The translations under genes and the position numbers were made by a program. Of a stretch of DNA of 64,000 nt, positions 15,601 to 36,508 are shown piece after piece. Under the pieces are notes generated by a model. It was not told the origin of the DNA, did not search any database, and was given only the letters and a program-made list of their open reading frames with translations. The stretch is from a virus, in IMG/VR virus record IMGVR_UViG_3300031951_009873, positions 16,475-80,474 of that record; one strand, written 5' to 3'. The stretch's first letter is position 1. Each line of letters starts with the position of its first letter.

Positions 15601-16539
15601 ATGAAATATATATTAGCTACGGGATGTTCATTTACAAACAATATAAGATTGAATCCAGATATACCGCAACAAGATACGGAACACAAAAGACGTTCTTGGC
15701 CGTATTATTTACAGCAAGAACTTGGAAATGAGTATTGTGTTTTAAATTATGGTGGAGCAACTAATGATAATGTGTCAATGTGTAGAATTATATTATATCA
15801 CATAAATCGTTTGTTGAAAGAAAACATAGACCCAAAAGATATAAAGATTATACTCCAATGGTCATCTGGTACTAGACAAGCAATTTATATGAGTAGACAG
15901 ATGGATAAATATTCTCATAGTATGGGGCACACATTGGTCTATCATAATAATTGGGAAACAACACCCGGAGTGTTTTATTTGACAGGTGGGTTTGACCCCC
16001 CGATGGGACCTGGTAGTGCAATAGAAAAATTTGGTATATATAATGCGATAAAGTACTGGCAAGCGGAAATTATGTGGGATAACCATATCAATACCGTTAT
16101 GCCTTGGTTAGAAATGTGGTTATTACTAGAAAAAACTTGTAAAGAATTGGGCATTGATGCGTATTACATGAATATGTGGGATAACTTTTCCCACCAATCG
16201 GAGTCCAATTTTACAAAAAATGGTAATAGCTTGCAGTTATATGGTAATCCAACCACAGATATTTGGATGGATAAAATTGAAGTTTTAAAACCATACCTTG
16301 ACAAGTTACCAATAAAGTCTGATAGACACTGGCATCATGAAAATTATAAGGGATTACTGGAATGGGCCATAGATACTAGAGATGATAATATACCTGTATT
16401 CCAAGAGTTCGATGAATATAAAGCAAAAACGTTTGAAGAGTATTTATATGCTACTGGTGGAAATTCGTGGGGACATCCTTCCGCTGAAATGATGGGAATA
16501 TTTGTTAGAACAGAACTTCTTAAGTTGATAAAATTATGA
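15601..16539 (+). CDS. SGNH hydrolase-like protein, paralogue 3
   Basis: TGCSFT, SWP, GATN, QWS, WGHPS. Confidence 0.65.
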   Translation: MKYILATGCSFTNNIRLNPDIPQQDTEHKRRSWPYYLQQELGNEYCVLNYGGATNDNVSMCRIILYHINRLLKENIDPKDIKIILQWSSGTRQAIYMSRQMDKYSHSMGHTLVYHNNWETTPGVFYLTGGFDPPMGPGSAIEKFGIYNAIKYWQAEIMWDNHINTVMPWLEMWLLLEKTCKELGIDAYYMNMWDNFSHQSESNFTKNGNSLQLYGNPTTDIWMDKIEVLKPYLDKLPIKSDRHWHHENYKGLLEWAIDTRDDNIPVFQEFDEYKAKTFEEYLYATGGNSWGHPSAEMMGIFVRTELLKLIKL

Positions 16540-22365: not shown

Positions 22366-23087
22366 AGAAAAAATTATTAATAGGAGGATGTTCCTTCTCA
22401 CAGTATCAAGGCCCTCCAACAGAAAGTCGTAAACCAAAATGGAAGCCGTGGACGGATTTTTTGATGGACGAATTTGAAGAAAAATTTAAAATCATAAACC
22501 GTGCGCAGAGTTCATTTGGCCAAGGTATGATTGCGCAATCTATTGTCGAAGAATTAATAAGATACAATTTTGAAGTTGATTATGTAATAATACAATGGTC
22601 AGCTATAGGTAGGTCTTATTCATTGAATAAAAAAGATTTCATCGATAGAGTAGTTCAGCATGGAGAATTACAATTCGCACCACATATGGAGGAGTACGTT
22701 ACTGGTAAGCCAGAAGGGCAGGTAACAGGTAACAATCCTCTTATGGATGTGATAAATGAAACTTCTTCACATTTTTATACAGCATCTCTAATAAAAATAT
22801 TGATGACGAAGGCACTATTGGAAAACAAAAAGATTCCATACATAATGTTCTGGGGATGGCAGCAAATTACTACGGAAATTGAATACGAAAATAAAAAGAT
22901 AATAGATTCAATTTATGATGAAAATTTTTGGAGATTTAATGATAATGGTGGAATGAACGAGTACATAGTATCTAATTTAGGAAAAGAGATAGGATTGGTG
23001 GGTAAAGGTGATTTTCATCCATCTACCACTGGGCAAAAGTTTTTTTATGATAATATAGTTAAGTCTTGGAAGTTTTTATGGGAGTAA
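22362..23087 (+). CDS. SGNH hydrolase-like protein, paralogue 7
   Basis: GGCSFS, QWS...R, DFHPS..G. Confidence 0.65.
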   Translation: MKKKLLIGGCSFSQYQGPPTESRKPKWKPWTDFLMDEFEEKFKIINRAQSSFGQGMIAQSIVEELIRYNFEVDYVIIQWSAIGRSYSLNKKDFIDRVVQHGELQFAPHMEEYVTGKPEGQVTGNNPLMDVINETSSHFYTASLIKILMTKALLENKKIPYIMFWGWQQITTEIEYENKKIIDSIYDENFWRFNDNGGMNEYIVSNLGKEIGLVGKGDFHPSTTGQKFFYDNIVKSWKFLWE

Positions 23088-23287
23088 TAGAAACTAAGAA
23101 AAGAACTATGTTTAAAACTATTAGTTGGAGATTGGTTGCGATATTAAATTCATTTTTAATTTTAACTATGAACCTAACTACAAACAATTTACTCAATGCG
23201 ATATACATGAATATTACTGGGTTTTTTGTTTTCTATTTTTTTGAAAGAGTTTGGGCCAATATACAATATGGGAGATACATAGAGTGA
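23078..23287 (+). CDS. DUF2061-like small membrane protein
   Basis: ETKKRT.FKTISWR ... YFFERVW..I.YG; two hydrophobic segments. Confidence 0.8.
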   Translation: MGVIETKKRTMFKTISWRLVAILNSFLILTMNLTTNNLLNAIYMNITGFFVFYFFERVWANIQYGRYIE

Positions 23288-24483
23288 TATATGTTTTGGA
23301 TATAGATGGTTGGCCGTTCGATTCACAGTGGCCCAGTAATAAGGAACCATTTCAATATGTAACATTAGAATACTTTATTAAAGATTTTTTGTTTAAAGGG
23401 AAACAAATTGCGGTACATAAAATAGAAGGCAATAACAAAATTTCCCCAGAGGCTGTAGATAAAATACTGACAGAAAATACAGATATTAAAGTATTTGCCT
23501 GTAATTTAGATGCATTTGAAGACAAGCAGTCATTATTATTATATGATGAACAACTTTGTCAAAAATATCCGAACGTATTTTTTATATTTTTTTACCACGA
23601 ATTAGATTTTACATTTTTAGTAGACTCGACTAGCAAAGGTATAAAAAATATAAGTTATGTCGTTAATTCGTTCACTACAAATGATTATGAAGAACTTAAT
23701 AAAAAGATATTTCCATACTATGTTATAAATTCCTACCTACAGAAAAATTATGAATCGATGTACAGAATGTACCATCCGAACTATAATCTAAGAAAAATTA
23801 AGAAATTTAATTTTCTAAATGGCATACATAAACCGCATAGATTAGCTGCGTACGAATTGATAAAAACGCATAATATGTTAGATGATGGTTTCTTTTCTTA
23901 TTTAGATTACACAAAATTTTTAAAGAATGACCAACACAAAGAAACAACAGCTAACTGGTTGGACATAACCATAGAAGAACTAGAAACCAGATTATCTAAC
24001 CTTGAAGTTCCTTATTTGTTAGAAACATACGAACCAAAGAACCAACCTGGGGTATTTGCTGCACCGTTCTTAATTCCCTTTATATATTCTTGGCAAAGTT
24101 ATATTTCGATTACATCTGAAACAAATTATATAGAACGTACAAACGTGGTATCCTTATCAGAAAAATCATTTAAAGCATTCGCTGGGTTTAATATTCCATT
24201 GATATATGGACAACCCAATCTAGTTGAATATTTAAAAAAGTTAGGATTTGATATGTTCGATGATTTATTTGATAACACTGTTGTAAACAGCAAAGCAGAA
24301 ACATTAAGTAAACTGGATAGAAATTTACAAGTTATTAAAAATATGTCGTTAGAAGAATTACACAATTTCTATGTAAAAAATTACAATAGGGTACAAAATA
24401 ATTTTTATAATCTAATTTACAAAATAAAAGATAGACACTTTAACCAAATTCAACAAAATGTTAATGAAATATTCAATAAGTGA
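23284..24483 (+). CDS. GT10-like putative glycosyltransferase, paralogue 5
   Basis: FNFLNG..KPHR, ITSETN..LSEKSFKAF...PLIYG..GFDMFDD. Probable GTG start at 23284. Confidence 0.6.
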   Translation: MIYVLDIDGWPFDSQWPSNKEPFQYVTLEYFIKDFLFKGKQIAVHKIEGNNKISPEAVDKILTENTDIKVFACNLDAFEDKQSLLLYDEQLCQKYPNVFFIFFYHELDFTFLVDSTSKGIKNISYVVNSFTTNDYEELNKKIFPYYVINSYLQKNYESMYRMYHPNYNLRKIKKFNFLNGIHKPHRLAAYELIKTHNMLDDGFFSYLDYTKFLKNDQHKETTANWLDITIEELETRLSNLEVPYLLETYEPKNQPGVFAAPFLIPFIYSWQSYISITSETNYIERTNVVSLSEKSFKAFAGFNIPLIYGQPNLVEYLKKLGFDMFDDLFDNTVVNSKAETLSKLDRNLQVIKNMSLEELHNFYVKNYNRVQNNFYNLIYKIKDRHFNQIQQNVNEIFNK

Positions 24484-25090
24484 TTCGTGGGACTGGGTTA
24501 CACATTTTGAAAATACTATAGCAGAGTATTGTGGGTCACGGTATGCAGTTGCGTGTGATTCCAACACCAATGCAATACGACTTGTATTACACTATCTGGG
24601 TATACAAAATCAACGCATACATATTCCGGCGAGAACATATGTGTCTGTACCGAACCAAATTATACTATCAGGAAATACACCAGTATTCGTAGATATTGAT
24701 TGGCAAGGGTTGTACAATATTGGAAATACTTCTATTGTTGATGCGGCTACCGCATTTTATAAGGGAATGTACCAAGAAAAGTATACCATATTATCTTTTC
24801 ATCTTAAGAAAATTTTGAACATCGGAACGGGTGGTATGATTCTGACCAACGATAAAGAGTTTGAACAATGGGCACGCCCTATGATTTATGATGGTAGACA
24901 TAAGAACAAAATGTACGTTGATGACCAATTTGAGTGTGTAGGTTGGCATATGTATATGACTCCAGAACAAGCCAAGCGTGGATTAGAAATATTTCATTCC
25001 GACAAAATTAAAGATTGGAACTCTCCGTGTGGTGGAAGTTGGTTATACAAAGATTTACGAGAACAAAATGTTTTTAAGAGTTACGTATGA
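24464..25090 (+). CDS. Short DegT/DnrJ/EryC1/StrS-family PLP aminotransferase
   Basis: FE..IAEYCG..YAVA..S.T.A, P..TY.S, VDAA, SFHLKK (PLP Lys), GGMILTND; only ~208 aa. Confidence 0.8.
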   Translation: MKYSISDSWDWVTHFENTIAEYCGSRYAVACDSNTNAIRLVLHYLGIQNQRIHIPARTYVSVPNQIILSGNTPVFVDIDWQGLYNIGNTSIVDAATAFYKGMYQEKYTILSFHLKKILNIGTGGMILTNDKEFEQWARPMIYDGRHKNKMYVDDQFECVGWHMYMTPEQAKRGLEIFHSDKIKDWNSPCGGSWLYKDLREQNVFKSYV

Positions 25091-25434
25091 CAAATTTAGT
25101 TTATTTTTTCTATTCTCTGGGATTATTTATTTTAGGTTCATTTGGTCACTGGTATATTATGTATTGGCAATTTAAGAATCCTAATTGGATTAAAATGCCG
25201 ACGCCATACATACTAGCAGCAGCGTCCGCATTTTTCTGGATTTCCGCATCTCATTACGGGGTTAAAGCATTCAACGGTGAGATGTGGTCAAACAGATTTT
25301 TGTTTTTCGTTACTGGTATAATGGTAGCAGCAATACTTTATCCTTATCATTTTAATCAACCATTTACAGGAAAGACGTTTGTACAACTACTTCTTTCACT
25401 AACCATAATTCTTGTAAGTTTACTTTGGAAATAA
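25087..25434 (+). CDS. Small multi-pass membrane protein
   Basis: About four hydrophobic helices in 115 aa. Confidence 0.6.
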   Translation: MTNLVYFFYSLGLFILGSFGHWYIMYWQFKNPNWIKMPTPYILAAASAFFWISASHYGVKAFNGEMWSNRFLFFVTGIMVAAILYPYHFNQPFTGKTFVQLLLSLTIILVSLLWK

Positions 25435-25435
25435 T

Positions 25436-26140
25436 ATGAAACAAAAACTATTTCATTATGGGTGTTCGTTCACAGAAAACATTCGTTCATTTAAACTACA
25501 TAACTTGTTTACGGACAAGTATGATTATCATAATCACGGTTTAGCTAGTTCCGGTAACGGATTGATTTTTGATACTTTTAAGAAAACCGCAGAATCAGAT
25601 TCTATAGCTATTTTACAGTGGTCATCTCTTACTCGTCCTCGGGATGAAAATTATAAAATATTAGAAACGTCTGATAATCCATTGTATGATTATTTGGAAG
25701 AATGGTATGGTACCTTATCCGAAGCAAGAGAATTTTCCAATAAAAATAATATAAAACTAGTACAGTATATTGGATGGGCTGAGTGGAAGGACTCTGAGTT
25801 AAACGATTATCATAGAAATAAACTTCAATCGTTTGGTATACATTGGTTTAAGTCTAAAAAGCAGTGGGACATAATTGCATCAAATTGTTTTCAATTTGAG
25901 GATCCTTACGAATGGAGTTCTCCTCCCAGACAGTTACCAGATGGAGAATATTTCCTTTGGTCAGATATAGAATGGGGCGGCATGAGTGAATGGATTAGAT
26001 CAAATATAGAGATACACGATAGATATAGGGGATGGACGGATGACACAGTTGCGGGAACCACATATTATGACCCGCACCCATCGGAGTATGCTAGTATTCA
26101 GTTTATAAAGGAATTTTTATTAAAAACATTGGAAATGTAA
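25436..26140 (+). CDS. SGNH hydrolase-like protein, paralogue 8
   Basis: YGCSFTE, SSGN, QWS.L.R, DPHPS. Confidence 0.65.
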   Translation: MKQKLFHYGCSFTENIRSFKLHNLFTDKYDYHNHGLASSGNGLIFDTFKKTAESDSIAILQWSSLTRPRDENYKILETSDNPLYDYLEEWYGTLSEAREFSNKNNIKLVQYIGWAEWKDSELNDYHRNKLQSFGIHWFKSKKQWDIIASNCFQFEDPYEWSSPPRQLPDGEYFLWSDIEWGGMSEWIRSNIEIHDRYRGWTDDTVAGTTYYDPHPSEYASIQFIKEFLLKTLEM

Positions 26141-26141
26141 G

Positions 26142-26939
26142 ATGAAAACTATACTTTCTATTGGTTGTTCTTATGCTCTTGATTTAAATCAACACTATAA
26201 AAAAACTAGTACGCTTAGATTTTCATATGATGGTGCCTCGATAGAAACAATACTGGAAATGGTTAAGTATTTAGAAAGTACGGAAGAGCACTCAACTGAA
26301 AATTGGGTTGTGGGTATAACTCAAATAGGTAGATTGAATAAACAAATTCCAAAAGGATTAGAATGGCAATCTCCAACATTAATAAAACCTAGAAATTTAT
26401 TTTTCGACAAAGACCATAAATGGTGTTTTTTCTCGGAAGGACAAGAAGAAAAAGAAATGTCCTCTAATTTTTCATCAGAGTGGTGGAAAACCGAACATAT
26501 CTCACACGTTTCCAAGCCAATAGAAGAACACATTAGAAATTATCTGAATGCTATTGTTGAAATACAAAATATTTTGAAAGATAAAAAATTTGTAATGTTT
26601 TTGATGAATAATACATTAGATGGTTGGGTTTATAAAAAAGATGGTAGATTATCACATATATATTCTGAATATAAAGGTTTCGACATACCAGAATTTAATG
26701 ACACATTCACATTAGAAAAGATATGTCCCAGAGAGTGGTCTAATATAGATTTTAGTAAATTTTGTTTGTATGAACACATGCAAAGTAAGTTTGGTGGGCT
26801 TGATGAATACACTATACACAAGTATGGAGTAAATCATTTTGGTACGTATCAATCGGCGGATAAAAATGTATTTGGACAACATCCTATACACGAAGCACAA
26901 TGGAATTTTTTCAATGAGGTCATAAAACACAGATTATGA
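26142..26939 (+). CDS. SGNH hydrolase-like protein, paralogue 9
   Basis: IGCSYA, GAS, TQ..R, GG..EY, GQHP. Confidence 0.55.
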   Translation: MKTILSIGCSYALDLNQHYKKTSTLRFSYDGASIETILEMVKYLESTEEHSTENWVVGITQIGRLNKQIPKGLEWQSPTLIKPRNLFFDKDHKWCFFSEGQEEKEMSSNFSSEWWKTEHISHVSKPIEEHIRNYLNAIVEIQNILKDKKFVMFLMNNTLDGWVYKKDGRLSHIYSEYKGFDIPEFNDTFTLEKICPREWSNIDFSKFCLYEHMQSKFGGLDEYTIHKYGVNHFGTYQSADKNVFGQHPIHEAQWNFFNEVIKHRL

Positions 26940-27721
26940 TAAATAAAAAAACAGAATGGGATTTTAATAAATCCGAATATGGATTTGGCAGAACTAAAAT
27001 TGATAATTTCTTGGACGAAAACACCGTTCGGGCTTTATATGAAGAATGTGTAAACGCACCAAAGGGCGGATGGACTGTGTTTACTCGCGCGGGTTCTCGT
27101 ATGGAAGAGTTTAACGACTTGATTTCTTTACCGACCGCACACAGGATTACATATGATATTATGCACTCCGGTGAGTTCTTATATGAACTAGAACAAATGA
27201 CTGGTATCGTTGGATTACTACCAGACCCACATTTAGTTGGTTCGGGATATTCGATTATCAGAAATGGTAACACACTTGGGTGCCATTACGACTTTAACTG
27301 GAATGACCGTATCCGATTACATAGAAAATTGACATCATTGTTGTACATTACCCCAGACTGGCAAGACGAATGGGGTGGACATATTCAATATTATGATGAT
27401 AATATAGATGTTAATCCGAACGCAAAACTAATTGAATCGGTGGCACCAAGATTTAATAGATTTGTTATCAACGAGAATATTAAGCACGGACCATATCACA
27501 GAGTAAGTGCGGTAAATGCACCAGATGATATTGGTCGGTGTGCTATCAGGTTCTTCTATTATATCAGTACTTCTGATCCAGATAAAGACAATCCACCACA
27601 CAGAAGTACTTATAAATCCAACGAATATTCACATCACAAGCTATATGAAGAAGAAACTTGGGATGGGCATTTCGTAGGAAATGGCGGGGAAGACTACGGA
27701 TATAACCACACGAATAAATAA
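26936..27721 (+). CDS. 2OG-Fe(II) oxygenase (prolyl-hydroxylase-like)
   Basis: LLPDPHLVG.G, HYDFN, LLYITPDW..EWGG, P.FNR, YHRV, R.AIRFFYY. Confidence 0.88.
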   Translation: MINKKTEWDFNKSEYGFGRTKIDNFLDENTVRALYEECVNAPKGGWTVFTRAGSRMEEFNDLISLPTAHRITYDIMHSGEFLYELEQMTGIVGLLPDPHLVGSGYSIIRNGNTLGCHYDFNWNDRIRLHRKLTSLLYITPDWQDEWGGHIQYYDDNIDVNPNAKLIESVAPRFNRFVINENIKHGPYHRVSAVNAPDDIGRCAIRFFYYISTSDPDKDNPPHRSTYKSNEYSHHKLYEEETWDGHFVGNGGEDYGYNHTNK

Positions 27722-28368
27722 TGTATTGTGTTTTCCACTTACCGAGAACAGGCTCAAGATATTTACACAGTTTAATTAATAGTAGCTTGTCATATCTTGA
27801 CCCAAGACACATAGGTACACATTTAGAACCATTCAATCCTGAGTTCAACACTTTAAATGATATTGAACATAAGTTTGAAGAGTTCACTAATAACGAACCA
27901 CCGACAACCGTGAAAATGGTTATCAATCATTATCCGTGGTTAGCGGATAAATTCATACAGCACCAAAAATACACTACGATTTTTATAAAACCTTTAAATT
28001 ATAGAAAACGTTTATTGAAAGCACTGGTAGAAAAACATTTCAGAACATACAGTAACGGAACGAATAGAAAGGATGTAAGAGAGCCATTTGTGGGTAAATT
28101 AAAGTTTTCTGATGAATTAATAGAAGAACGTTTTTTTCATTACAAACTTCATATGGAATATGAAACACGATGCGACTATGTTTTTTATGATGAGTATTTA
28201 TTCACGCATACAACTGACGTATTAACTAAATTGAATTTACCATTAGTTACTACAAGATATAAACGGGTGGCACCATACTATTCAGATGAAGATATGCTAG
28301 AAAATATTGATGAGTTCAACAAACAATACGATAAACTTAGTGTAAAAATTTTTGGATATGTTGTATGA
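27721..28368 (+). CDS. Sulfotransferase-like protein A
   Basis: 5'-PSB-like loop HLPRTGS.YL, EPFNP; paralogue of 28963-29598. Confidence 0.6.
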   Translation: MYCVFHLPRTGSRYLHSLINSSLSYLDPRHIGTHLEPFNPEFNTLNDIEHKFEEFTNNEPPTTVKMVINHYPWLADKFIQHQKYTTIFIKPLNYRKRLLKALVEKHFRTYSNGTNRKDVREPFVGKLKFSDELIEERFFHYKLHMEYETRCDYVFYDEYLFTHTTDVLTKLNLPLVTTRYKRVAPYYSDEDMLENIDEFNKQYDKLSVKIFGYVV

Positions 28369-28946
28369 TAACAAATGAATTGTTAAAAATAGAACGTATC
28401 AAACCTACTGATATGGTAGGTATAATGTTGTCTGGTGGAATGGATAGTGCATTATTATTATATCTACTAGCTAAAAATTTAACTAATCAAATAATTCCGT
28501 TCACTGTTCCAAAAACAGATGGTGCGAAACATTACGTCGTACCGATTGTTACGTGGGTAAATAATAAACTAAATAAAAACATACCAGAACCACAGTTGAT
28601 AGGAAATCCATCAGTATATCATTCTCAAATAATAAACCATTCTTTAAAGGAAATAGAAGAAATGTACGATGTTTTATACTTTGCAGGAAATTCATATCCA
28701 GAAAATATATTGCCTGGCGGACCCAATCGTACTAAAAGAACAAATTCCAAACATTTACAACCATTTTTTGAGTTATATAAAACAGATATCTTACGAGGAT
28801 ATATAACTTATGATATAATGGATTTAATATTACTAACTCATACGTGCACAGAATTAGAATATGGTAGATGTAATGTCTGTTGGCAATGCAAGGAAAGAGA
28901 ATGGGCCTTCAAAGAACTAGATATATTAGACAGAGGGATACAATGA
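28365..28946 (+). CDS. QueC-like PP-loop ATPase A
   Basis: MLSGGMDS; C-terminal THTC..RCNVCWQCKER Zn motif. Confidence 0.8.
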   Translation: MITNELLKIERIKPTDMVGIMLSGGMDSALLLYLLAKNLTNQIIPFTVPKTDGAKHYVVPIVTWVNNKLNKNIPEPQLIGNPSVYHSQIINHSLKEIEEMYDVLYFAGNSYPENILPGGPNRTKRTNSKHLQPFFELYKTDILRGYITYDIMDLILLTHTCTELEYGRCNVCWQCKEREWAFKELDILDRGIQ

Positions 28947-28962
28947 TAATAGAGATATTAAT

Positions 28963-29598
28963 ATGTATTGTATAGTTGCATTACCTAAAACTGCTTCTAC
29001 ACTTACATGGCACATAATTGATGACGCACTGAAACGAAATAATTTAAACTGTGATTACGGAGATATAGAACCATTTAATCCATATAATAAAAATTATACA
29101 CCTAGATTAGAAAACCAAGAAATTATTTATCAACGTTTGTTGATTAGTAAACCGTTACCATTGATAAAATTATTAACTAACTATAACTACAATATATTTA
29201 ATTGGTTTAATAATTCACCGTATCAATTGATTTTTTTAAAACCAAAAAACATTAGAAAACAAATACTTGGTTCATTAATAGGCAACGTGACAAAAAATTA
29301 TTTTGGTATAAGAGAAGAACGATTGGAGTTGAAAGGTAAGTTAAAATTTGAAAGATATAAAATAGAACAAAAAGTGTTCGCATACAAAAAACATATGAGA
29401 CTAGAACGATTCTGTAAATACAGTTTTTACGATACAGAAATCATAACCAATCCAAATTATTTATTAGAAACTTTAAAGTTACACAAAACAGAAACAGTAT
29501 ATAATAATTACACACTACCAATTATCAGCGATGATGATATGTTAGAAGATATTGATGAGTTTAATAAACTATATGAGGAGTGTATTAATACATTATGA
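28963..29598 (+). CDS. Sulfotransferase-like protein B
   Basis: LPKTAST, EPFNP, GKLKF, DDMLEDIDEFNK; colinear similarity to 27721-28368. Confidence 0.55.
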   Translation: MYCIVALPKTASTLTWHIIDDALKRNNLNCDYGDIEPFNPYNKNYTPRLENQEIIYQRLLISKPLPLIKLLTNYNYNIFNWFNNSPYQLIFLKPKNIRKQILGSLIGNVTKNYFGIREERLELKGKLKFERYKIEQKVFAYKKHMRLERFCKYSFYDTEIITNPNYLLETLKLHKTETVYNNYTLPIISDDDMLEDIDEFNKLYEECINTL

Positions 29599-29816
29599 CA
29601 GTTCATATAAAAAGACATATTGCAAAAGCAATTACATATAGAATAGTAGGTACCTTGACAACATTTATTATTTCGTATATATTTACGGGTAGTATATCTC
29701 TATCATCCGCGATAGGGGCCACAGAATTAATAGTCAAACCCGTCAATTATTTTTTACACGAACGGGCGTGGTATAAGTGGATTAAATTTGGTCTTACTAA
29801 TAAGAACGAGGAATAA
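29595..29816 (+). CDS. DUF2061-like small membrane protein
   Basis: KRHIAKAITYRIVGT ... YFLHERAWY. Confidence 0.85.
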   Translation: MTVHIKRHIAKAITYRIVGTLTTFIISYIFTGSISLSSAIGATELIVKPVNYFLHERAWYKWIKFGLTNKNEE

Positions 29817-29819
29817 TAT

Positions 29820-30584
29820 ATGAGAATTTTGGTTATGGGATTGCCTGGGTCTGGAAAGACTACATTATCTAAGGTATTGGCGGAAAAGTTAGATGCCGCT
29901 TACTTCAATGCAGACGAAGTACGGAAACAGTTCAACGATTGGGACTTTTCTGAAACTGGTCGTAAACGTCAAGCATATCGGATGCGGGAACTTTGTGATA
30001 TGTCAGAAACGTATCATACGGTGGCAGATTTTGTCTGTCCCACAGAAGAAACCCGTGAACTCTTCTTACCAGATTTTATTGTGTTTATGAATACAATAGA
30101 TGCTGGGAGATTTGAGGATACCAATAGAGTGTTTGAGGTACCCGAAAAGGTAAATGTATTGGTGAATGGATGGATAGACACAAATACACAAGCAGATATT
30201 ATCATTGAACAAATCAAGAAAGTGGACGTACATTTTGGTTGGCAGAATCCTACGGGACTGATGATTGGTCGGTTCCAACCATTCCACGATGGGCACTTGA
30301 AGTTATTTGAGACTATCTTGGAGAAGGAAGGTCAGGTACTTATTGCGGTCAGAGACACCTATAATACCGACGAAAAGAACCCATTCAATTATGTGGAGGT
30401 TATCGAAGGAATCCACAAGAAGCTGGAAAATAAGTACCGTGGAAAATACTATATAATGTCTGTCCCGAATATCACTGGGGTCTATTATGGTCGGGATGTG
30501 GGATATAAAGTCGAGAAAATCAATCTGGACCCACAAACTGAATCGATTTCTGCTACCCAAATTCGGAAGGAAATGGGGAAGTAA
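29820..30584 (+). CDS. cysC: Adenylylsulfate kinase fused to an HxGH nucleotidyltransferase domain (candidate compact PAPS synthase)
   Basis: MGLPGSGKTT, NADEVR, DFS..GR, ADFVCP, FE.P; C-terminal IGRFQPFHDGH ... ISATQIR. Confidence 0.8.
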   Translation: MRILVMGLPGSGKTTLSKVLAEKLDAAYFNADEVRKQFNDWDFSETGRKRQAYRMRELCDMSETYHTVADFVCPTEETRELFLPDFIVFMNTIDAGRFEDTNRVFEVPEKVNVLVNGWIDTNTQADIIIEQIKKVDVHFGWQNPTGLMIGRFQPFHDGHLKLFETILEKEGQVLIAVRDTYNTDEKNPFNYVEVIEGIHKKLENKYRGKYYIMSVPNITGVYYGRDVGYKVEKINLDPQTESISATQIRKEMGK

Positions 30585-30586
30585 AC

Positions 30587-30596
30587 GATATTTATT
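30587..30596 (+). promoter_or_regulatory. Phage-type GATA(T/C)TTAT motif (putative late promoter), possibly giving a leaderless mRNA
   Basis: GATATTTATT ends 3 nt before ATG 30600; the same motif occurs in six other intergenic gaps. Confidence 0.55.
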
Positions 30597-30599
30597 AGT

Positions 30600-31166
30600 A
30601 TGCAAGTAAATGTACCTGCGAATTGTGAAAGAATAAATGTTTTGTTTTCTGGAGGGGCAGATAGTTCACTATTGGCGTATCTGTTGATAAAGCAAAATAC
30701 TGATATACCGATAGTTCTTCATTTTATGAAACATAGGCTGGATTTTCAGAGTCCACACATGACTAACTGCCACAATTGGTTAGAACGACATTTTAATAAG
30801 AAAATTTTGTTAAATGGATGGGGAAAGACATTTATTAGACAAGCAGTTGAAATGATACTCATAGACTTTCCAGGATATGTGTATAGTGGGTGTAATAAGG
30901 TTCCTGAAAACGTATTTGTTCCAACGGTTATTATTCCGTACGATACCCCGCCGGTACGTGGTACTGAATATAATGAGTTTCATAAACGTCCGTTCATAGA
31001 AATGTTAAAGCCAGAGTTATATAAAATATACCAGAAAGAAAATATTTTAGATTTATTTAATCTATCTTTTTCTTGCGGGGCTCCTGTAAAAAATGAAGAT
31101 GGAGTAAATGTTCCGTGTGGGGGTTGTTTTTTCTGTATGGAACGCGTATGGGGAATGCAAAGTTAA
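30600..31166 (+). CDS. QueC-like PP-loop ATPase B
   Basis: LFSGGADS; SFSC...PCGGCFFCMER. Confidence 0.8.
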   Translation: MQVNVPANCERINVLFSGGADSSLLAYLLIKQNTDIPIVLHFMKHRLDFQSPHMTNCHNWLERHFNKKILLNGWGKTFIRQAVEMILIDFPGYVYSGCNKVPENVFVPTVIIPYDTPPVRGTEYNEFHKRPFIEMLKPELYKIYQKENILDLFNLSFSCGAPVKNEDGVNVPCGGCFFCMERVWGMQS

Positions 31167-31189
31167 TTATACACTAGTTTGGAGATTTT

Positions 31190-32689
31190 ATGTCTGTATA
31201 TAATGTAGTTTACACCGGAGACACATCAAATCTTGTTACCAGTCTTACCTCCGCAGGTATCACTGTTAACAAAACATTTGAAGCTCTTAAGGTTTTAAAT
31301 GTTACCTCGGATAGTTCTGATTTTTCTCAATTTGCACAAATACTTGTAGTTGAGGAAGATATAGAAACCACGCCTGTGTTGGGTGCTTGGGCATTAAATA
31401 GAGTAAACAGTAAGATGTTACCTATGAGAAATGTATATACCCCAAGAAATTATGGCGATAACGTGGTTGTGTATGTTGTGGACTCCGGTATCGACTGGAC
31501 ACATCCAGAACTAACACATCTTACTCCAAACAATTTATATTCATATGATGAAAATTTCCAAGACATTATAGGTCACGGAACTGCTATTGCTAGTTTAGTT
31601 GCGGGAATGGTAGTGGGTGCATCTAAGTACGCCGTCTTAAAATCAGTAAAAATTCAAAGTGGAGTTCCCATACCAGTTAGTGATTTATTAACTGCGTTCA
31701 ATGTAATACTTACTGACCACAATGTAACTCCAACAGTTGTAAAAGTTGTAAACTGTTCGTGGTCAGTTGCAAAAAGTCAAATTCTTGATTTAAAAATTCA
31801 AGAATTGAAGGACGCGGGATTGGTAGTAGTTGCGTCGGCAGGTAATACTGTGTCAGATGCAAACTTACTGTCTCCTGTGGGATTAAACACCGTAATAGGT
31901 GTTGGTGCATGTGATGCATACGACAGAGTAATTAACTGGGGTCCAGCTGCAGGGTCAAACTGGGGGCCTGATGTAGATATTACTGCGCCAGGAATAGATG
32001 TAGAATATGCAAATGTTTCCGGTGGACTTATGTTGGGGTCAGGTACATCATTTGCGGCAGCTCTAGTTAGTGGATTAATCTGTCAATATATCTCCGCATA
32101 TCCAACAAAAACAGCAGCAGAAATACAAAGTGAATTCCTTGCCGCAGGTTTGCCGGATATGTTGTTTAGAAACGAAACAATATATGGTACTACCCCCAAT
32201 CTTTTAGCACAAGCTCTAGCACACGAAGAATTATTCACTTCACCGACACAAGTTTATTACAAAATACAACGTGGAACGGAATTGATTATTCCTATAACCG
32301 TGTTATCTCCTGCAGTAGCCGTACGTATCGATGATATTTTATTTGGTACACACGTACGAGATTGTTTACCGTGGGTGACTAGAAATAGTAATGGTGAGTT
32401 GGTAGTTTCACCACCAGCAGATTTGTTAGTTGGTGGGTATCGTATGTTTTTAGAAGCATTAGATGAAAACAATCAATCGTTAGAGATACGAGGAATTCGT
32501 TTTGGTGTGTACAATATAGACCCTAATGAAGTGGATTCAAGTGAACCAGATCAATATTATAGTCATCAAGAAGATGGTACAGTTGTAGTTCGTTTGGACG
32601 CATGTGTGTCTAGTTGTTTTGATACGTGTTCTGAAAGTTTCAAAGAAGGTCAATGTGCTTGTATTGGTGGTGGATGTAGTACTTTTTAA
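31190..32689 (+). CDS. Subtilisin-like S8 serine protease with prodomain, Ig-like region and Cys-rich tail
   Basis: VVDSG (Asp), GHGT (His), SAGN, SGTSFAA (Ser); C-terminal CVSSCFDTC...CACIGGGC. Confidence 0.9.
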   Translation: MSVYNVVYTGDTSNLVTSLTSAGITVNKTFEALKVLNVTSDSSDFSQFAQILVVEEDIETTPVLGAWALNRVNSKMLPMRNVYTPRNYGDNVVVYVVDSGIDWTHPELTHLTPNNLYSYDENFQDIIGHGTAIASLVAGMVVGASKYAVLKSVKIQSGVPIPVSDLLTAFNVILTDHNVTPTVVKVVNCSWSVAKSQILDLKIQELKDAGLVVVASAGNTVSDANLLSPVGLNTVIGVGACDAYDRVINWGPAAGSNWGPDVDITAPGIDVEYANVSGGLMLGSGTSFAAALVSGLICQYISAYPTKTAAEIQSEFLAAGLPDMLFRNETIYGTTPNLLAQALAHEELFTSPTQVYYKIQRGTELIIPITVLSPAVAVRIDDILFGTHVRDCLPWVTRNSNGELVVSPPADLLVGGYRMFLEALDENNQSLEIRGIRFGVYNIDPNEVDSSEPDQYYSHQEDGTVVVRLDACVSSCFDTCSESFKEGQCACIGGGCSTF

Positions 32690-32715
32690 AATATGTATAA
32701 TATAACAGTTATTAT

Positions 32716-33141
32716 ATGATACGAGTGTATACCGGAGGAACATTTGATTTATTTCACTATGGTCATATGAACTTCCTCCGGCAGTGTTCTGAGTTAGGTG
32801 ATGAGGTGATAGTGGCATTAAACACTGACGAGTTCATAGAAAAATATAAAAATCAGAAACCTATACTGTCATACGCAGAACGTTATGAGAGTTTAATGGG
32901 TTGCAAATATGTCACTCGTATAGTAAAAAATTTGTCAAGTGAGGATAGTAAGCCCACCATCTTGTCAGTACAACCTGATATCATTGCAATTGGAGATGAT
33001 TGGAAACATAAAAACTATTATAAACAAATGATGTTTACTGAAGAATGGCTTCGAGAACATTACATTGAATTGGTGTATTTGCCATACACCTCTATTATTT
33101 CTACCACTATTTTGAAAGAACGTATTAGGTATGGAAAATAA
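32716..33141 (+). CDS. tagD: Glycerol-3-phosphate cytidylyltransferase-like (TagD family)
   Basis: YTGGTFDLFHYGH, LNTDEF, ER, IGDDW, YLPYT..ISTT. Confidence 0.85.
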   Translation: MIRVYTGGTFDLFHYGHMNFLRQCSELGDEVIVALNTDEFIEKYKNQKPILSYAERYESLMGCKYVTRIVKNLSSEDSKPTILSVQPDIIAIGDDWKHKNYYKQMMFTEEWLREHYIELVYLPYTSIISTTILKERIRYGK

Positions 33142-33880
33142 AATTGCAGTTGTTATTCGTGGACAGTTCAGAACTTGGAATTTTTGTAAACATCAAACAT
33201 TTCACGTATTTGAATCTCGCTATCCAGAAGTTGACTGGTATTTTATGTCCTGGGAAGATAGTGTCACAGACTCACAATTAGAAACACTGCAAGAAGATTT
33301 CAAAGACAGAAATGCCACAATAAAAATACTTGTTCGTGATGAAACTGGAAATAATTCTTGGAATTCTCAACGTCGGTTAGGTTATGAATTACTAGGTAAA
33401 ATGGATGCCTACACACAAATATTTGAAATGCGCCCAGATGTTTATTTGGAGATATCTGACACTCAACAATTTCCAAGTAACAACACACAATGGTATGTTA
33501 CTGGCCTGAGAACTAGAGAAGAAGTGTGTAGGGAATCTGATAGATACATTCGACGAGTAAAGACCAGCATCAACGATTGGTTCTATGTGCAAAATCCTCT
33601 CATGTTCCAAAAATTCACTGAGTCATATACAGAGTCCATGAAATTGGAAGGACCACGGGCACAACTAGTTGATGTGGCTCTAGGAAACAACATAGAGATT
33701 ACTGACATCTCTGATGTAGTGACCCCATGGGTGCTTCGTCCCACATACACGCCCAACGCACTATTTGGTCATGAAAAATTATGGATGGGGATGGCCAGCA
33801 AAGAAAAAATAAAATTGTTGGAATCTTTGAATATTCAGATACAAGATTATAAAACTAATAACAGGTTTATTAGTATATGA
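33131..33880 (+). CDS. Hypothetical protein, possible glycosyltransferase-like
   Basis: KIAVVIRGQFRT N-terminus, MRPD and NDWF motifs typical of a viral glycan-cluster family. Confidence 0.4.
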   Translation: MENKIAVVIRGQFRTWNFCKHQTFHVFESRYPEVDWYFMSWEDSVTDSQLETLQEDFKDRNATIKILVRDETGNNSWNSQRRLGYELLGKMDAYTQIFEMRPDVYLEISDTQQFPSNNTQWYVTGLRTREEVCRESDRYIRRVKTSINDWFYVQNPLMFQKFTESYTESMKLEGPRAQLVDVALGNNIEITDISDVVTPWVLRPTYTPNALFGHEKLWMGMASKEKIKLLESLNIQIQDYKTNNRFISI

Positions 33881-34788
33881 AATATGAAAGAAGCATTTTG
33901 ATAAGAAGAACTTTACCAACTGTTGAGTTTGCACCAAGCTATTTTGGGCAGGTGTTGAAATTTCCACACCAAGGTGTTAGAAAATTTCACAATAACTATG
34001 ATAGTGAACGCTATCAGGATGTTGTAAAATTAGTTAGTGATTTGGAGATTTCTGAAGAGATATGGCCATATTATCACCTCGAAGAAGACTTTTACAAATA
34101 CAACTCTTTTGGTTATCGTACTTATGAATTGGATGAACTACAAAAATCTTTTGATATTGCTATAGGTTGTTGTTGTGTGGAGGGGTTAGGGTTAAGGCAG
34201 GAAGAAACCTGGGTACACCATTATGAAAAAAATACTGGCAGACAACTTGTTAACTTAGGAAAAGGTGGTACTGGATCAAACTACATTAATATAAACTTAA
34301 CTGCCTGGTTGAGTCATCGCCGGCGTCCAGACAGAGTTATCATTTTTTGGTCAGATCCAACCTCTAAAACAGTGTTTCGTGATAATGGTGATTTTACTAC
34401 ACTGCAATTTGGAAACCAACGTATACATCCAGTGGTTACTGATGGTGATGAGAACATAAATAAATGGTACAAAGCTGAACTACAAGACCGAGGCATTTCC
34501 AGTAATGAATTTGTCTTGACATATATGAGCACAAATGTTATGTTACACAGTAGTGGTATAGATGTTAGAAACTTTTTTCCTAGCATTTATTGGAAAGAAG
34601 AAGATGTAAGAAGTATAGAACAGTTCACCAACACCCAAGCTCACTATCTGGATTACAACAATGTTAGTGGCGGGTGGTCCTCTTTTCGTGATTATCAATA
34701 TTTTCCTTCATCTGACATGACTCATCATGGTTGGCAGCATCAAAAACCAATAGCAACTAAAATAGGTGAAATTTATGAAAATACCTGA
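33877..34788 (+). CDS. SGNH hydrolase-like protein, paralogue 10 (Cys in the nucleophile position)
   Basis: YKYNSFGYR, IGCCCVEGLG, NLGKGG, DMTHHG. Confidence 0.6.
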   Translation: MKYERSILIRRTLPTVEFAPSYFGQVLKFPHQGVRKFHNNYDSERYQDVVKLVSDLEISEEIWPYYHLEEDFYKYNSFGYRTYELDELQKSFDIAIGCCCVEGLGLRQEETWVHHYEKNTGRQLVNLGKGGTGSNYININLTAWLSHRRRPDRVIIFWSDPTSKTVFRDNGDFTTLQFGNQRIHPVVTDGDENINKWYKAELQDRGISSNEFVLTYMSTNVMLHSSGIDVRNFFPSIYWKEEDVRSIEQFTNTQAHYLDYNNVSGGWSSFRDYQYFPSSDMTHHGWQHQKPIATKIGEIYENT

Positions 34789-35014
34789 TATTAAAGAAAT
34801 CATTACCGCTTGGCATCATGCAGCCAACCCTACACCAGAACAACGAGAATTGGCTGAGTATCGTGGTTCTATTTGTGAGAGATGTGAACATAAAGAGTTC
34901 CGAACACTTATCAGATTCTATGTGTGTGGAGCATGTGGGTGTCCAATATCAAAGAAAATATACAGTCCCAAACCAGGCCCAGAAGCTTGTCCTAAAGAGA
35001 AGTGGGATAAATAA
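34775..35014 (+). CDS. Small Cys-rich zinc-finger-like protein
   Basis: R..ICERC....CGACGC....K....CPKEKW. Confidence 0.75.
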   Translation: MKIPDIKEIITAWHHAANPTPEQRELAEYRGSICERCEHKEFRTLIRFYVCGACGCPISKKIYSPKPGPEACPKEKWDK

Positions 35015-35033
35015 CGTAATTTATTAGTATTGC

Positions 35034-35043
35034 GATATTTATA
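35034..35043 (+). promoter_or_regulatory. Putative late promoter motif
   Basis: GATATTTATA upstream of structural ORF 35072. Confidence 0.6.
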
Positions 35044-35071
35044 CTAGTACACTTTAAGAGTAAACCACAGT

Positions 35072-36508
35072 ATGGGATTCATAAACCAATTCTCACGCAA
35101 CGTAAATACACGGACAGAAACCGTCATCTCTAAAGATGCGGGGTCACCTGATATTGCAAGTTCCTCGCTCCAAACAATGGGTGGGGCATTTGTGTTATTG
35201 GATGCCAAGGTGTCCACAAACCCACCAGTACGACTTAGATTATATACAGATTCATCCAGTATGGTTATAGATGCTAACCGTGCAGCTGGAAACTTTAATC
35301 TTTCCCAATCTGTAGGATTAATTGCAGATATCAATCTCACCACAACAGAAAAACTAGTATTTGCACCGCCGGTAATCGGACACACCAACGCTGGTGGGGA
35401 GGTGTGGTATAATCTAAGTGGGTCAGGGTTACAAAATGTTACCCTCACTACCTACGCTTTAAGTAATATAGGTGACAGTGAAGATAACAAAGAGGCTATT
35501 CATATCAGTGGGTCACAAGTATTGGTCACAGGTGGGTCGATATACGGAGTTAGTGGAAGTATTACCACCCCAAAGAGTTTTGCAATCTTGAAGGCTAAGG
35601 GTACTTATAATTTCAATGTAGACCAACAATGGGAACGTGGGCTCGCATCGTTTGATCTTGATGGTTGGGAATTTTGGCAAACTCGTTCTCTAACAAGTGA
35701 ATTACACACAACCACTGACCCAACAAAAGTAACCCAACAATTCCCAGAAATTCCAGTCGGGTCTACATTATATGCTGGACAAATTGCAACACGTACCGGA
35801 ACATTCTGGAAAGATGGTAATTTCTACTACTTACCGGTAGACGTAGGAAATGTGTATAGAATTTCTGGTTGGGTATATGGCACGTATGATGGTACTGCTA
35901 ACGATACATTATTTGGTAACTATGATATTGGATTTTTAGTCATCGGCGCAGATGCTGGAAATAATCTAATACCCGATTATACCTTTGCACGAACCGCTCC
36001 TGCTCCTCGTTGGCAATATGTATCTGCCGACTTTACCGTTGGAGCAGGTACTTCATCTTTGGTTGTTGGAACATTTATTGATGGACCATATCCAGCAGGT
36101 TATGGATACGGTGCACCAGTATGTACCTCCCCAACGTATGATTTTCAACCAATGGTATGTCCTGGATACGCTTGGTATACTGGATTTACCGTAGAAAATG
36201 TAACTGATTTTGCTAGTAGATTACGACTATATTCTACGGATATTGAAGATGTACCTTTAGCAGAACAAATCAGACCGTTCGGAAATGTTCCAAACTCTGG
36301 GTCAAAACTTATCGCTGATATGATGTTTGATTCTGCAAGTTATCATTATCCGTTAGTTCCTGTATTGGAAGGATTTACTTGGGAAGACCCTAATTATAGT
36401 CCTGGTGTCAACCGTACCAGTTACATACTAGAAAATTTATCTGCGGTAGCCACAGTATATTCTGGTTCATTAAACGCAGACCTTACCATTTATAACTTAG
36501 AAGATTAA
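35072..36508 (+). CDS. Putative virion protein: duplicated RLRLY domain with inserted carbohydrate-binding-like domain
   Basis: Two RLRLY...LIAD repeats; aromatic-rich insert with YRISGWV and WQYVSADFT (CBM4/9-like). Confidence 0.5.
   Translation: MGFINQFSRNVNTRTETVISKDAGSPDIASSSLQTMGGAFVLLDAKVSTNPPVRLRLYTDSSSMVIDANRAAGNFNLSQSVGLIADINLTTTEKLVFAPPVIGHTNAGGEVWYNLSGSGLQNVTLTTYALSNIGDSEDNKEAIHISGSQVLVTGGSIYGVSGSITTPKSFAILKAKGTYNFNVDQQWERGLASFDLDGWEFWQTRSLTSELHTTTDPTKVTQQFPEIPVGSTLYAGQIATRTGTFWKDGNFYYLPVDVGNVYRISGWVYGTYDGTANDTLFGNYDIGFLVIGADAGNNLIPDYTFARTAPAPRWQYVSADFTVGAGTSSLVVGTFIDGPYPAGYGYGAPVCTSPTYDFQPMVCPGYAWYTGFTVENVTDFASRLRLYSTDIEDVPLAEQIRPFGNVPNSGSKLIADMMFDSASYHYPLVPVLEGFTWEDPNYSPGVNRTSYILENLSAVATVYSGSLNADLTIYNLED

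Follow-up and report, generated by a model that had tools for sequence, protein, structure and literature searches.

A phage kinase–nucleotidyltransferase fusion as a candidate minimal PAPS synthase

We analyzed a 64,000-nucleotide stretch of viral DNA (the window; positions 16,475 to 80,474 of IMG/VR record IMGVR_UViG_3300031951_009873) and found, in a T4-like marine phage, a protein of 254 residues in which a trimmed APS-kinase-family kinase is linked to a minimal HxGH nucleotidyltransferase (NT). Judged from its sequence and genomic company, the protein is probably a two-step sulfate-activating enzyme that feeds the adjacent sulfotransferase-fold proteins. We also lean toward a broader proposal: that the NMNAT-derived domain of ~110 residues represents a third, unrecognized class of ATP sulfurylase besides Sat and CysDN; that, with its APS-kinase partner, it makes the PAPS on which SAR11 and SAR86 sulfotransferases draw; and that marine and plant-pathogen phages carry the two as a portable one-gene PAPS synthase for glycan sulfation during infection. 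We found no paper describing the fusion as a PAPS synthase.

The fusion gene and its neighbors

Between 26936 and 33880 the genes run in one direction at intergenic gaps of -11 to +26 nt, and the ORF positions given in the preliminary description agreed with our re-check (Table 1). The joining of an APS kinase to an HxGH nucleotidyltransferase at 29820 was borne out by Pfam matches (AAA_33 at 31.5 bits and PF01583 in the N-terminal half, CTP_transf_like at 30 bits over residues 148–193), by the fold and by the motifs GLPGSGKT at residue 7, FHDGH at 155–159 and ISATQIR at 243–249. The fusion is no chance ORF, since it matches phrog_10255 over its full length (E 1.5e-59), has thousands of metagenomic homologs and is strongly conserved in both halves.

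Table 1. Features of the locus, in window coordinates
Feature	Position	Strand	Basis or remark
Sulfotransferase-fold protein A, 215 aa, loop LPRTGS	27721..28368	+	Fold, motif
QueC-like PP-loop ATPase 1, 193 aa	28365..28946	+	PF06508 at 28.1 bits; phrog_1550
Sulfotransferase-fold protein B, 211 aa, loop LPKTAST	28963..29598	+	Paralog of A, motif
DUF2061 small membrane protein	29595..29816	+	PF09834
Candidate minimal PAPS synthase, kinase–nucleotidyltransferase fusion, 254 aa	29820..30584	+	phrog_10255 member; model pLDDT 89
N-terminal domain, residues 1–138, trimmed APS-kinase-family P-loop kinase	29820..30233	+	PF01583, profile search, Foldseek, VIA
C-terminal domain, residues 142–254, minimal HxGH nucleotidyltransferase, candidate new ATP sulfurylase	30243..30584	+	PF01467; function from context
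QueC-like PP-loop ATPase 2, 188 aa	30600..31166	+	Family/PHROG matches

Two sulfotransferase-like genes had been noted just upstream, and the predicted fold and a PAPS-binding-type loop support this assignment. Proteins A and B are paralogs (34% identity, E 1e-29) with no match in Pfam, NCBIfam or PHROG. The whole of a confident predicted model (pLDDT 92) can be aligned to sulfotransferases, matching Stf0 (1tex, Z 10.9, 176 aligned residues), heparan sulfate (HS) 2-O-sulfotransferase (3f5f, Z 10.8, 197 aligned) and many SULTs near Z 10; kinases score similarly but span only residues 1–173. The Atlas neighbors are Stf0 and Sulfotransfer_1/_3 clusters (0.95–0.96). Where a Walker A GK[ST] would stand, both proteins have a loop of the 5'-phosphosulfate-binding type (typically P-[KR]-x-G-[ST]-[ST]), LPRTGS in A and LPKTAST in B, which lies at residues 7–12 and is nearly invariant in the family. 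Of the 78 ORFs in the window that reach 100 aa, no others carry a P-[KR]-x-[GA]-x-[ST] loop in the N-terminal region. A Pfam-verified SAR86 sulfotransferase carries a comparable loop, LPRSGTT, and in hhalign the phage family and the SAR86 Sulfotransfer_3 align over the loop alone (probability 5%). The conserved R95/R97, S111 and H144 are candidate 3'-phosphate-binding or catalytic-base residues.

No other neighbor accompanies the fusion in so wide a range of phages as the small DUF2061 gene (PF09834 at 72.6 bits, cut-off 23.1), which adjoins it in nine viral loci, distant ones included. In Flavobacteriaceae, 59 of 63 DUF2061 loci adjoin cysH/cysD-class genes, an independent link between the phage gene and sulfate activation that also gives DUF2061 a context. 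QueC-like ATPase 1 also occurs in two sister loci (L003, L006), and ATPase 2 is conserved downstream of the fusion in four (L003–L005, L007). The absence of any CysH or sulfite-reductase-type gene among those seen fits sulfation rather than assimilation. The description of the module as self-contained was too strong, however, because the window does not account for sulfate uptake or for removal of PAP.

The two halves of the fusion

The kinase half belongs to the APS-kinase family, as had been proposed. Its PF01583 match covers residues 3–80 at 22.8 bits, a small margin over the cut-off of 21.1, and bacterial orthologs score 21.8–56 bits. In a family profile search, APS kinases matched best (2yvu, E 4e-8), with many CysC/PAPSS kinase domains near 1e-5, and APS kinases also held the top Foldseek ranks. 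VIA gave Z of 16–16.8 against APS kinase/CysC structures, with 16.8 for both 2yvu (rmsd 2.3, 134 aligned) and 4rfv (rmsd 1.8, 123 aligned), compared with 14.9 for gluconokinase, 13.2 for shikimate kinase and about 11 for DPCK structures. We searched for the APS-kinase substrate motifs DGDxxR, GF(S/T)xxxR..RR and F(I/V)SP by alignment to 2yvu and found most of them kept, as N-A-D32-x-x-R35, W-D-F43-S-x-x-G-R48-x-R50...R54 and F-V-C-P74, with one position altered, Asn replacing the first Asp of DGD. A full-length domain with the C-terminal lid was not found, the ~135 residues matching profile positions 5–90 of 152 only.

Known PAPS synthases and Sat–CysC fusions (human PAPSS1 1x6v, Aquifex 2gks, Thiobacillus 3cr8) likewise hold an APS kinase and an HxxH-type adenylyltransferase in one polypeptide, and their kinase domains align with that of the phage at Z 15.9–16.1; they are, however, 546–630 aa long. 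The NT had been taken for a stripped-down Sat, and we reject that identity: in 2gks, 3cr8 and 1x6v the family profile picks up the kinase domains alone and not the Sat parts, and PF01747 gave no match in the NT at E up to 0.1. The NT comprises about 111 residues with nothing else attached, and the N-terminal PUA-like domain and roughly 380-aa catalytic unit of Sat were not found in it; nor did we find a Sat gene in the phage's own genome fragment. H156-x-x-H159 and an invariant G224-R225-(D)-V-G-Y after the fourth strand can be set alongside the HxxH and GRD loop of Sat, with the caveat that GxD at this position is common throughout the HxGH nucleotidyltransferase superfamily.

By sequence comparison, the NT is an offshoot of the NadM/archaeal-NMNAT branch. 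Among solved structures it comes closest to NadM 2qjt (E 2.9e-9, Z 10.4) and the archaeal NMNAT 1f9a (Z 10.0, 31% identity), and it has in common with these and 1ej2 (Z about 10) a Rossmann-like core and the motifs GRFQPFHxGH (GRFQPFHDGH at 150–159) and (I/Y)S(A/G)TxIR. It nevertheless scores far under the cut-offs of the NMNAT families TIGR01527 (40.2 vs 181.2 bits) and NF002243 (43.4 vs 127 bits). The main alignments end at residue 214–220, with only the ISxT stretch realigning, and 109 NT residues fall inside positions 1–135 of the 164-residue chain 1f9a_A. The region from the fourth strand to the ISxT motif is missing, and in the alignments to NMNATs the NMN-binding segment and the C-terminal helical subdomain are absent. 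Across the NT family there is no variation in the HxGH and ISxTxxR motifs or in several arginines. Other matches were weak, over the full domain to PPATs (3do8 E 0.12, NF001985 E 2.7e-4; 4nah at Z 10.1 in VIA), or marginal, to NadR (8x7f E 0.001, 1lw7 E 0.045).

Genomic context in phages and marine bacteria

Comparative genomics ties the small domain to APS kinase and sulfotransferases: the kinase and NT lie directly beside sulfotransferases, of different families, in four independent settings. In the T4-like phage and its sisters, the sulfotransferase-fold genes adjoin the fusion. In a divergent phage group (L009–L018 and L037), only 5 nt separate the end of a Sulfotransfer_3 gene (64–68 bits) from the fusion that follows, and in one member, L014, a Sulfotransfer_2 gene comes just after the fusion. 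In SAR86, a sulfotransferase–kinase–NT operon was present in all eight genomes fetched and is evident by coordinates in 10. In the fourth setting, five marine loci carry TPR-sulfotransferases 25–43 nt from a fusion of reversed order, in which an NT (44–54% identical) precedes a canonical, full-length CysC; in three such fusions (P0280, P0358 and P0406) the CysC scores 212, 194 and 139 bits against PF01583, and the arrangement recurs across several metagenome sources. Many phage loci, such as those of Xylella phage Sano and Stenotrophomonas phage DLP_6, have no recognizable sulfotransferase next to the fusion.

The kinase–NT unit has a cellular origin. SAR11 and SAR86 encode kinase and NT as two overlapping genes, and phages usually carry them fused. 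To our knowledge, both groups have long been described as lacking sulfate activation. We sampled 51 SAR86-order and 41 Pelagibacterales genomes, whose completeness is only 75–80% or more. In the SAR86 order, a strong Sulfotransfer_3 match was found in 23 of 25 pair carriers and in 3 of 26 noncarriers (Fisher p 3.6e-9, uncorrected and ignoring shared ancestry). Across the same 51 genomes Sat was found in one, CysD/CysH-class genes in one and AprA in none, and no pair carrier had a detected Sat, CysD or AprA. The pair is dispensable in this order, half of the genomes being without it.

In Pelagibacterales, the pair occurs in 28 of 41 genomes and strong CysD in five, all of them pair-less, so that the two do not co-occur (statistics that again ignore shared ancestry); four of the five CysD matches adjoin a CysNC-like gene. 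CysDN/CysNC apparently does the same job, and there the two systems replace each other, each co-occurring with sulfotransferases. CysD is a PP-loop ATPase powered by the GTPase CysN and has no relation to an HxGH nucleotidyltransferase, either in fold or in mechanism. Of 34 sulfotransferase-bearing Pelagibacterales, 31 have either the pair or a CysD system. The SAR11 pair sits among C1/DMSP genes and not beside sulfotransferases. Each order has two pair carriers with no detected sulfotransferase, and three sulfotransferase-bearing genomes with neither the pair nor a known sulfurylase. The pathway gap filled in SAR86 and the mutual exclusion with CysD in Pelagibacterales favor the PAPS-route reading; for SAR11 and SAR86, which carry sulfotransferases and, in the genomes sampled, mostly no Sat, CysDN or AprAB, the unit would explain the supply of PAPS.

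Proposed route and competing explanations

Under the preferred reading, sulfate would attack the ATP alpha-phosphate in the HxGH domain, yielding APS and pyrophosphate, a step we propose without appeal to Sat homology. NMNAT-type enzymes perform the same chemistry with a phosphate nucleophile, and loss of the NMN-binding segment may leave room only for a small anion. The kinase, from its family membership and conserved substrate motifs, would then phosphorylate the 3'-OH of APS to give PAPS and pull the unfavorable sulfurylase step forward, the same two-step route and coupling as in other sulfurylase–kinase fusions. The two adjacent sulfotransferase-fold proteins, from their fold, motif and context, would consume the PAPS; the likely sulfate acceptor is a glycan from the surrounding sugar-modification island, and DUF2061 may be a membrane partner of sulfate activation. 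Phage genes annotated "kinase" or "adenylylsulfate kinase" are usually read as sulfur-assimilation AMGs; if the route is correct, they would instead belong to a sulfation system whose probable targets are glycans of the surface or the virion, which would affect host range and adsorption. That the phage owns a route from sulfate through APS and PAPS to a sulfated product was already suggested in the preliminary description, and it is comparative genomics that supports it. An NT that makes APS would constitute a new enzyme family for a central reaction in the metabolism of sulfur; the fusion would then be the smallest PAPS synthase known and could serve for in situ PAPS regeneration in biocatalytic sulfation.

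The alternative that survives best, though we think it rather unlikely, accepts the kinase as a true APS kinase and gives the NT another role in PAPS metabolism, as a regulatory or ATP-binding module or in other nucleotidyl transfer, with APS supplied by an unrecognized host route. The lack of Sat signal and the kinase-only homologs in Ralstonia phages phiRSL1 and RsoM2USA are consistent with this, and the few sulfotransferase-bearing genomes with neither pair nor known sulfurylase suggest that another APS source may exist. The SAR86 carriers without Sat, CysD and AprA point the other way, and the invariant motifs and arginines argue for catalysis. The NT is moreover bound to APS kinase in two fusion orders and in a translationally coupled pair, as true sulfurylases are.

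We consider it very unlikely that the protein is a reversed NadR-like enzyme of NAD+ salvage, with the NT an NMN/NaMN adenylyltransferase and the kinase of nucleoside or ribosylnicotinamide type. The NT's top matches in sequence and structure and its GRFQPFHxGH signature would suit such an enzyme, NadR also fuses an HxGH adenylyltransferase to a small P-loop kinase, and NAD+ reconstitution by phages is an established counter-defense theme. NadR, however, has the opposite domain order and an RNK kinase, whereas the phage kinase is nearest to APS kinases. The NT remains at 40 of the required 181 bits, and because its NMNAT alignment stops at residue 218 and it is short (~111 aa against 168–181 aa), the NMN-holding segment and C-terminal subdomain are missing. 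It keeps company with sulfotransferases, canonical CysC and DUF2061 and in no case with NAD genes, and canonical NadD is present in carriers and noncarriers alike.

The chance is slighter still that the unit activates another small anion or makes another 3'-phospho-adenylyl donor (from selenate, phosphite or a carboxylate) for the neighboring P-loop-fold transferases. The phage kinase is indeed divergent and trimmed, and only their fold marks the phage transferases as sulfotransferases; yet the unit adjoins bona fide Pfam sulfotransferases in SAR86, in the second group of phages and in the NT–CysC loci, the reversed fusions use canonical CysC, and DUF2061 associates with cysH/cysD. The presence of CoaD, CoaE and NadD in carriers, and the dispensability of the pair in half of SAR86, weaken the rival readings further. 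Least probable is a CoA-synthase-like pair of phosphopantetheine adenylyltransferase and dephospho-CoA 3'-kinase, which would perform identical chemistry, adenylyl transfer followed by 3'-OH phosphorylation, and could draw on the weak full-domain PPAT matches of archaeal type: the context holds no CoA genes, the kinase is closer to APS kinases than to DPCK (Z 16.8 vs about 11), and all five carrier genomes tested have canonical CoaD and CoaE.

The fused kinase and nucleotidyltransferase

The 254-aa fusion protein joins a kinase half (residues 1–138) to a nucleotidyltransferase (NT) half (residues 142–254), and its neighborhood is laid out exactly at the ORF positions of the preliminary description. 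We found thousands of full-length homologs in metagenomes. Phages of Xylella, Xanthomonas, Stenotrophomonas, and Clavibacter carry homologs of 46–49% identity annotated as "kinase" or hypothetical, and the whole protein matches phrog_10255 ("kinase"; E 1.5e-59). An alignment of 30 members showed strong conservation across both halves; a Megablast search with positions 27000–33000 gave no match among phage records.

Features of the module and its surroundings, in window coordinates
Feature	Position	Strand	Length (aa)	Characteristics
Sulfotransferase-like ORF	27721–28368
QueC-like PP-loop ATPase	28365–28946		193
Sulfotransferase-like ORF	28963–29598
DUF2061 ORF	29595–29816
Fusion	29820–30584	+	254	GLPGSGKT Walker A at residue 7; FHDGH 155–159; ISATQIR 243–249
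QueC-like PP-loop ATPase	30600–31166		188
Subtilase	31190–32689			Peptidase_S8, 94 bits; Cys-rich C-terminus
Cytidylyltransferase	32716–33141

The domain identities are established at the level of family and fold. Pfam placed P-loop kinase families at residues 3–82 (AAA_33, 31.5 bits; APS_kinase, 22.8 bits with a cut-off of 21.1). APS kinases were the top solved-structure profile matches of the family (2yvu, E 4e-8, followed by many CysC and PAPSS kinase domains) and, for the confidently predicted model (pLDDT 89), took the top Foldseek ranks for the whole fusion, with kinase matches filling the list. For the kinase half, VIA Z scores were 16–16.8 for APS kinases, 14.9 for gluconokinase, and ~13 for shikimate kinase, Kti12, and PSTK. 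An alignment to 2yvu shows the motifs on the substrate side (D32/R35, F43, R48/R50/R54, and F-V-x-P) preserved, with Asn in place of the first Asp of DGD; the domain has been cut down to ~135 residues. On the predicted model and the family profile, we assign this half to the APS-kinase family.

The other half is a minimal HxGH nucleotidyltransferase, with a Pfam CTP_transf_like match at residues 148–193. It had been proposed to be a stripped-down Sat-type ATP sulfurylase. At the sequence level this did not hold, because the Pfam search gave no PF01747 (Sat) match to the fusion and the profile matches bifunctional Sat-kinase structures through their kinase domain only. For residues 142–254, the 50 VIA matches listed include no Sat catalytic domain, but kinases fill that list and it barely probes this half, so that structural similarity to Sat may exist; the match to 1x6v (244 aligned, rmsd 19.1) carries no meaning for the NT half. 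We infer instead a candidate PAPS synthase with a sulfurylase half from a different family. A full-text literature search found no description of the NT domain as a sulfurylase.

Against a sulfurylase stands the fact that the characterized NT relatives are NMN adenylyltransferases (NMNATs). NadM and archaeal NMNATs are the closest solved structures (2qjt, E 2.9e-9, Z 10.4; 1f9a, Z 10.0, 31% identity), with PPAT only slightly behind as a structural match (Z 10.1), and NMNATs supply the best NCBIfam models for this half, at 40–43 bits far under the cut-offs of 127–181. Judged from the alignment, however, the domain is not a normal NMNAT, since the match breaks off around residue 218 and resumes only at the ISxT stretch, and the length is ~111 aa against 168–181 aa. 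A role as housekeeping NMNAT was rejected because NadD-like genes occur in SAR86 genomes both with and without the kinase–NT pair; NadD itself was present in four of the five carrier genomes tested. CoA synthesis is dismissed because all five contain CoaD and CoaE.

Cellular relatives

A species-genome scan returned 509 relatives, chiefly in Pelagibacteraceae, SAR86, and soil Alphaproteobacteria. The SAR11 and SAR86 loci examined hold two ORFs, a kinase of ~136 aa and an NT of ~130 aa overlapping by 8 nt, and the fused form is found in soil Alphaproteobacteria and phages. Searching exhaustively with only the NT domain as query (1456 representatives, E up to 1e-3), we repeatedly found reversed fusions, from several marine sources, in which the NT lies N-terminal to a canonical full-length CysC (P0280, P0358, and P0406; PF01583 at 212, 194, and 139 bits). 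Full-length TPR-sulfotransferases lie 25–43 nt from these reversed fusions in five loci and 1.7 kb away in two. The coupling of NT and APS kinase is conserved in three architectures, and the unit adjoins sulfotransferases in four independent settings.

Among 51 SAR86 genomes at least 75% complete, 25 had the pair and 26 a strong Sulfotransfer_3 match: 23 had both, 2 the pair alone, 3 the sulfotransferase alone, and 23 neither (Fisher p 3.6e-9, uncorrected for shared ancestry). Coordinates place a sulfotransferase 140–270 nt upstream of the pair on the same strand in 10 genomes, and all eight loci fetched showed an operon of Sulfotransfer_3 (135–158 bits), kinase, NT, and 2-hydroxyacid dehydrogenase. 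Sat was found in 1 of the 51 genomes, a real CysD/CysH-class match also in 1, and AprA in none; AprAB as the source of APS in SAR86 was rejected.

The 41 Pelagibacterales genomes at least 80% complete contained the pair in 28 cases, Sat in one, and a strong CysD (176–200 bits) in five, all five lacking the pair; four of these CysD genes have an APS-kinase domain 1.5–2 kb away, within a frame of 613–639 aa (CysNC-like). Pair and CysD are mutually exclusive, co-occurring in 0 of 41 genomes (p 0.0017, uncorrected for shared ancestry), with the reservation that this table and that for SAR86 both contain exceptions and the genomes are incomplete. Of 34 sulfotransferase-bearing Pelagibacterales, 26 had the pair, 5 CysD, and 3 neither. 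The carriers are without known APS-forming enzymes. Gene neighborhoods in SAR11 (C1/DMSP genes) gave no clue to function.

Several side observations concern these loci. The last gene of the eight SAR86 operons (L119–L126) always encodes a 318-aa D-2-hydroxyacid dehydrogenase, and most have, ahead of the sulfotransferase, a 183-aa ORF whose N-terminus resembles a signal peptide and which matches no family; the two may be clues to the operon's sulfated product. In a complete SAR86 genome (G002), a membrane protein of PF03601 (YeiH family; L052:7052–7951) lies directly upstream of the pair and may be relevant to sulfate supply, the family carrying the NCBI name putative sulfate exporter. In another form of the pair, present in SAR11 genomes G057, G063, G065, G067, G069, G073, and others, the kinase frame is longer (166–199 aa) and matches only profile positions 1–98 to 1–120, and kinase and NT lie ~60–150 nt apart without overlapping.

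Sulfotransferase-fold genes and phage loci

The window belongs to an 80-kb viral contig, estimated to be about one third complete, of a T4-like myovirus with gp32, baseplate, family-B polymerase, UvsX-like, and DnaB-like genes. The module sits inside a large sugar/glycan-modification island (positions 1–35000) with three NDP-sugar epimerase/dehydratases, a dTDP-sugar isomerase, a DegT aminotransferase, a carbamoyltransferase, two radical SAM enzymes, PhyH and 2OG oxygenases, a cytidylyltransferase, and many ORFs without a family match. All genes at 26936–33880 run in one direction with gaps of −11 to +26 nt, and a promoter/terminator scan of 23000–35500 found nothing exceeding chance.

The two upstream ORFs, described earlier as sulfotransferase-like, are paralogs (34% identity, E 1e-29) from a small family restricted to phages (29 homologs). 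Fold and loop bear the description out; membership in a known family does not, neither ORF matching Pfam, NCBIfam, or PHROG. The model (pLDDT 92) matched sulfotransferases along its entire length (Stf0, Z 10.9; HS 2-O-sulfotransferase, Z 10.8; many SULTs, ~10), P-loop kinases covering only residues 1–173. Where Walker A would sit, the ORFs have LPRTGS and LPKTAST, which show the pattern of the loop that binds PAPS in sulfotransferases, and they are the only window ORFs of at least 100 aa with such an N-terminal loop. Language-model neighbors, a lead only, were Stf0 and Sulfotransfer_1/_3 clusters. The family profile gave just a faint guanylate-kinase match in the PDB (E 0.09), and hhalign comparisons with SAR86 Sulfotransfer_3 and phage Sulfotransfer_2 were not significant.

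In divergent phages (L009–L018 and L037), the fusion is ~46% identical to that of the window and a Sulfotransfer_3/_1 gene (64–68 bits) stops 5 nt before it; L014 has an additional Sulfotransfer_2 right after. The remaining phage contexts are mixed, and many loci have no recognizable sulfotransferase. The fusion is also carried, annotated as "kinase" or hypothetical, by two cultured plant-pathogen/soil phages, Xylella phage Sano (L001) and Stenotrophomonas phage DLP_6 (L002), beside a MazG-like gene or an Fe(II) oxygenase and Ser/Thr phosphatase, and with no annotated sulfotransferase nearby. Both are tractable test systems.

A candidate route to PAPS and the adjoining genes

As a candidate PAPS synthase, the fusion is most simply explained by two steps: the NT half would join sulfate to ATP-derived AMP, giving APS, and the kinase half would convert APS to PAPS for the neighboring sulfotransferases. 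The phage's own sulfotransferases, recognized by fold, would then use PAPS, presumably on a glycan acceptor, and the DUF2061 and two QueC-like genes might also take part. New here are the operon in SAR86 and the lack of AprA, CysD, and Sat in that group, the finding that pair and CysD exclude each other in Pelagibacterales, the NT–CysC fusions in reversed order, and the linkage of DUF2061 to cysH/cysD.

DUF2061 adjoins the fusion in nine viral loci, including distant ones with DUF2061 on the opposite side. In a coordinate tally covering 61 genomes of Flavobacteriaceae, PAPS_reduct-family genes stand ~0.1–1.3 kb away on the same strand at 59 of 63 DUF2061 loci, usually in the order DUF2061, a ~210-aa CysH-like gene, and a ~305-aa CysD-like gene (e.g., G122:C1:2025704–2027271; genomes G097–G156). 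As the regular first gene of cysH/cysD-type operons, the uncharacterized DUF2061 is given a sulfate-activation context. Among the 120 longer DUF2061 proteins listed we found only tandem DUF2061 and no kinase fusion, and in the literature DUF2061 was found only as a Fur/iron-regulated hypothetical protein. One kinase–NT homolog has DUF4118 joined at its N-terminus (P0284) and another a hydrophobic C-terminal tail (P0113); taken with DUF2061, these membrane elements hint at membrane association of the family.

The QueC-like ATPases flank DUF2061 and the fusion and are kept in the sister phages L003–L007. No 7-deazaguanine genes were seen near them, and their matches to PAPS_reduct/CysD models (E 0.06–0.07) amount to the shared PP-loop only. 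The subtilase gene follows the module and has the same position in L003, L004, L005, and L007.
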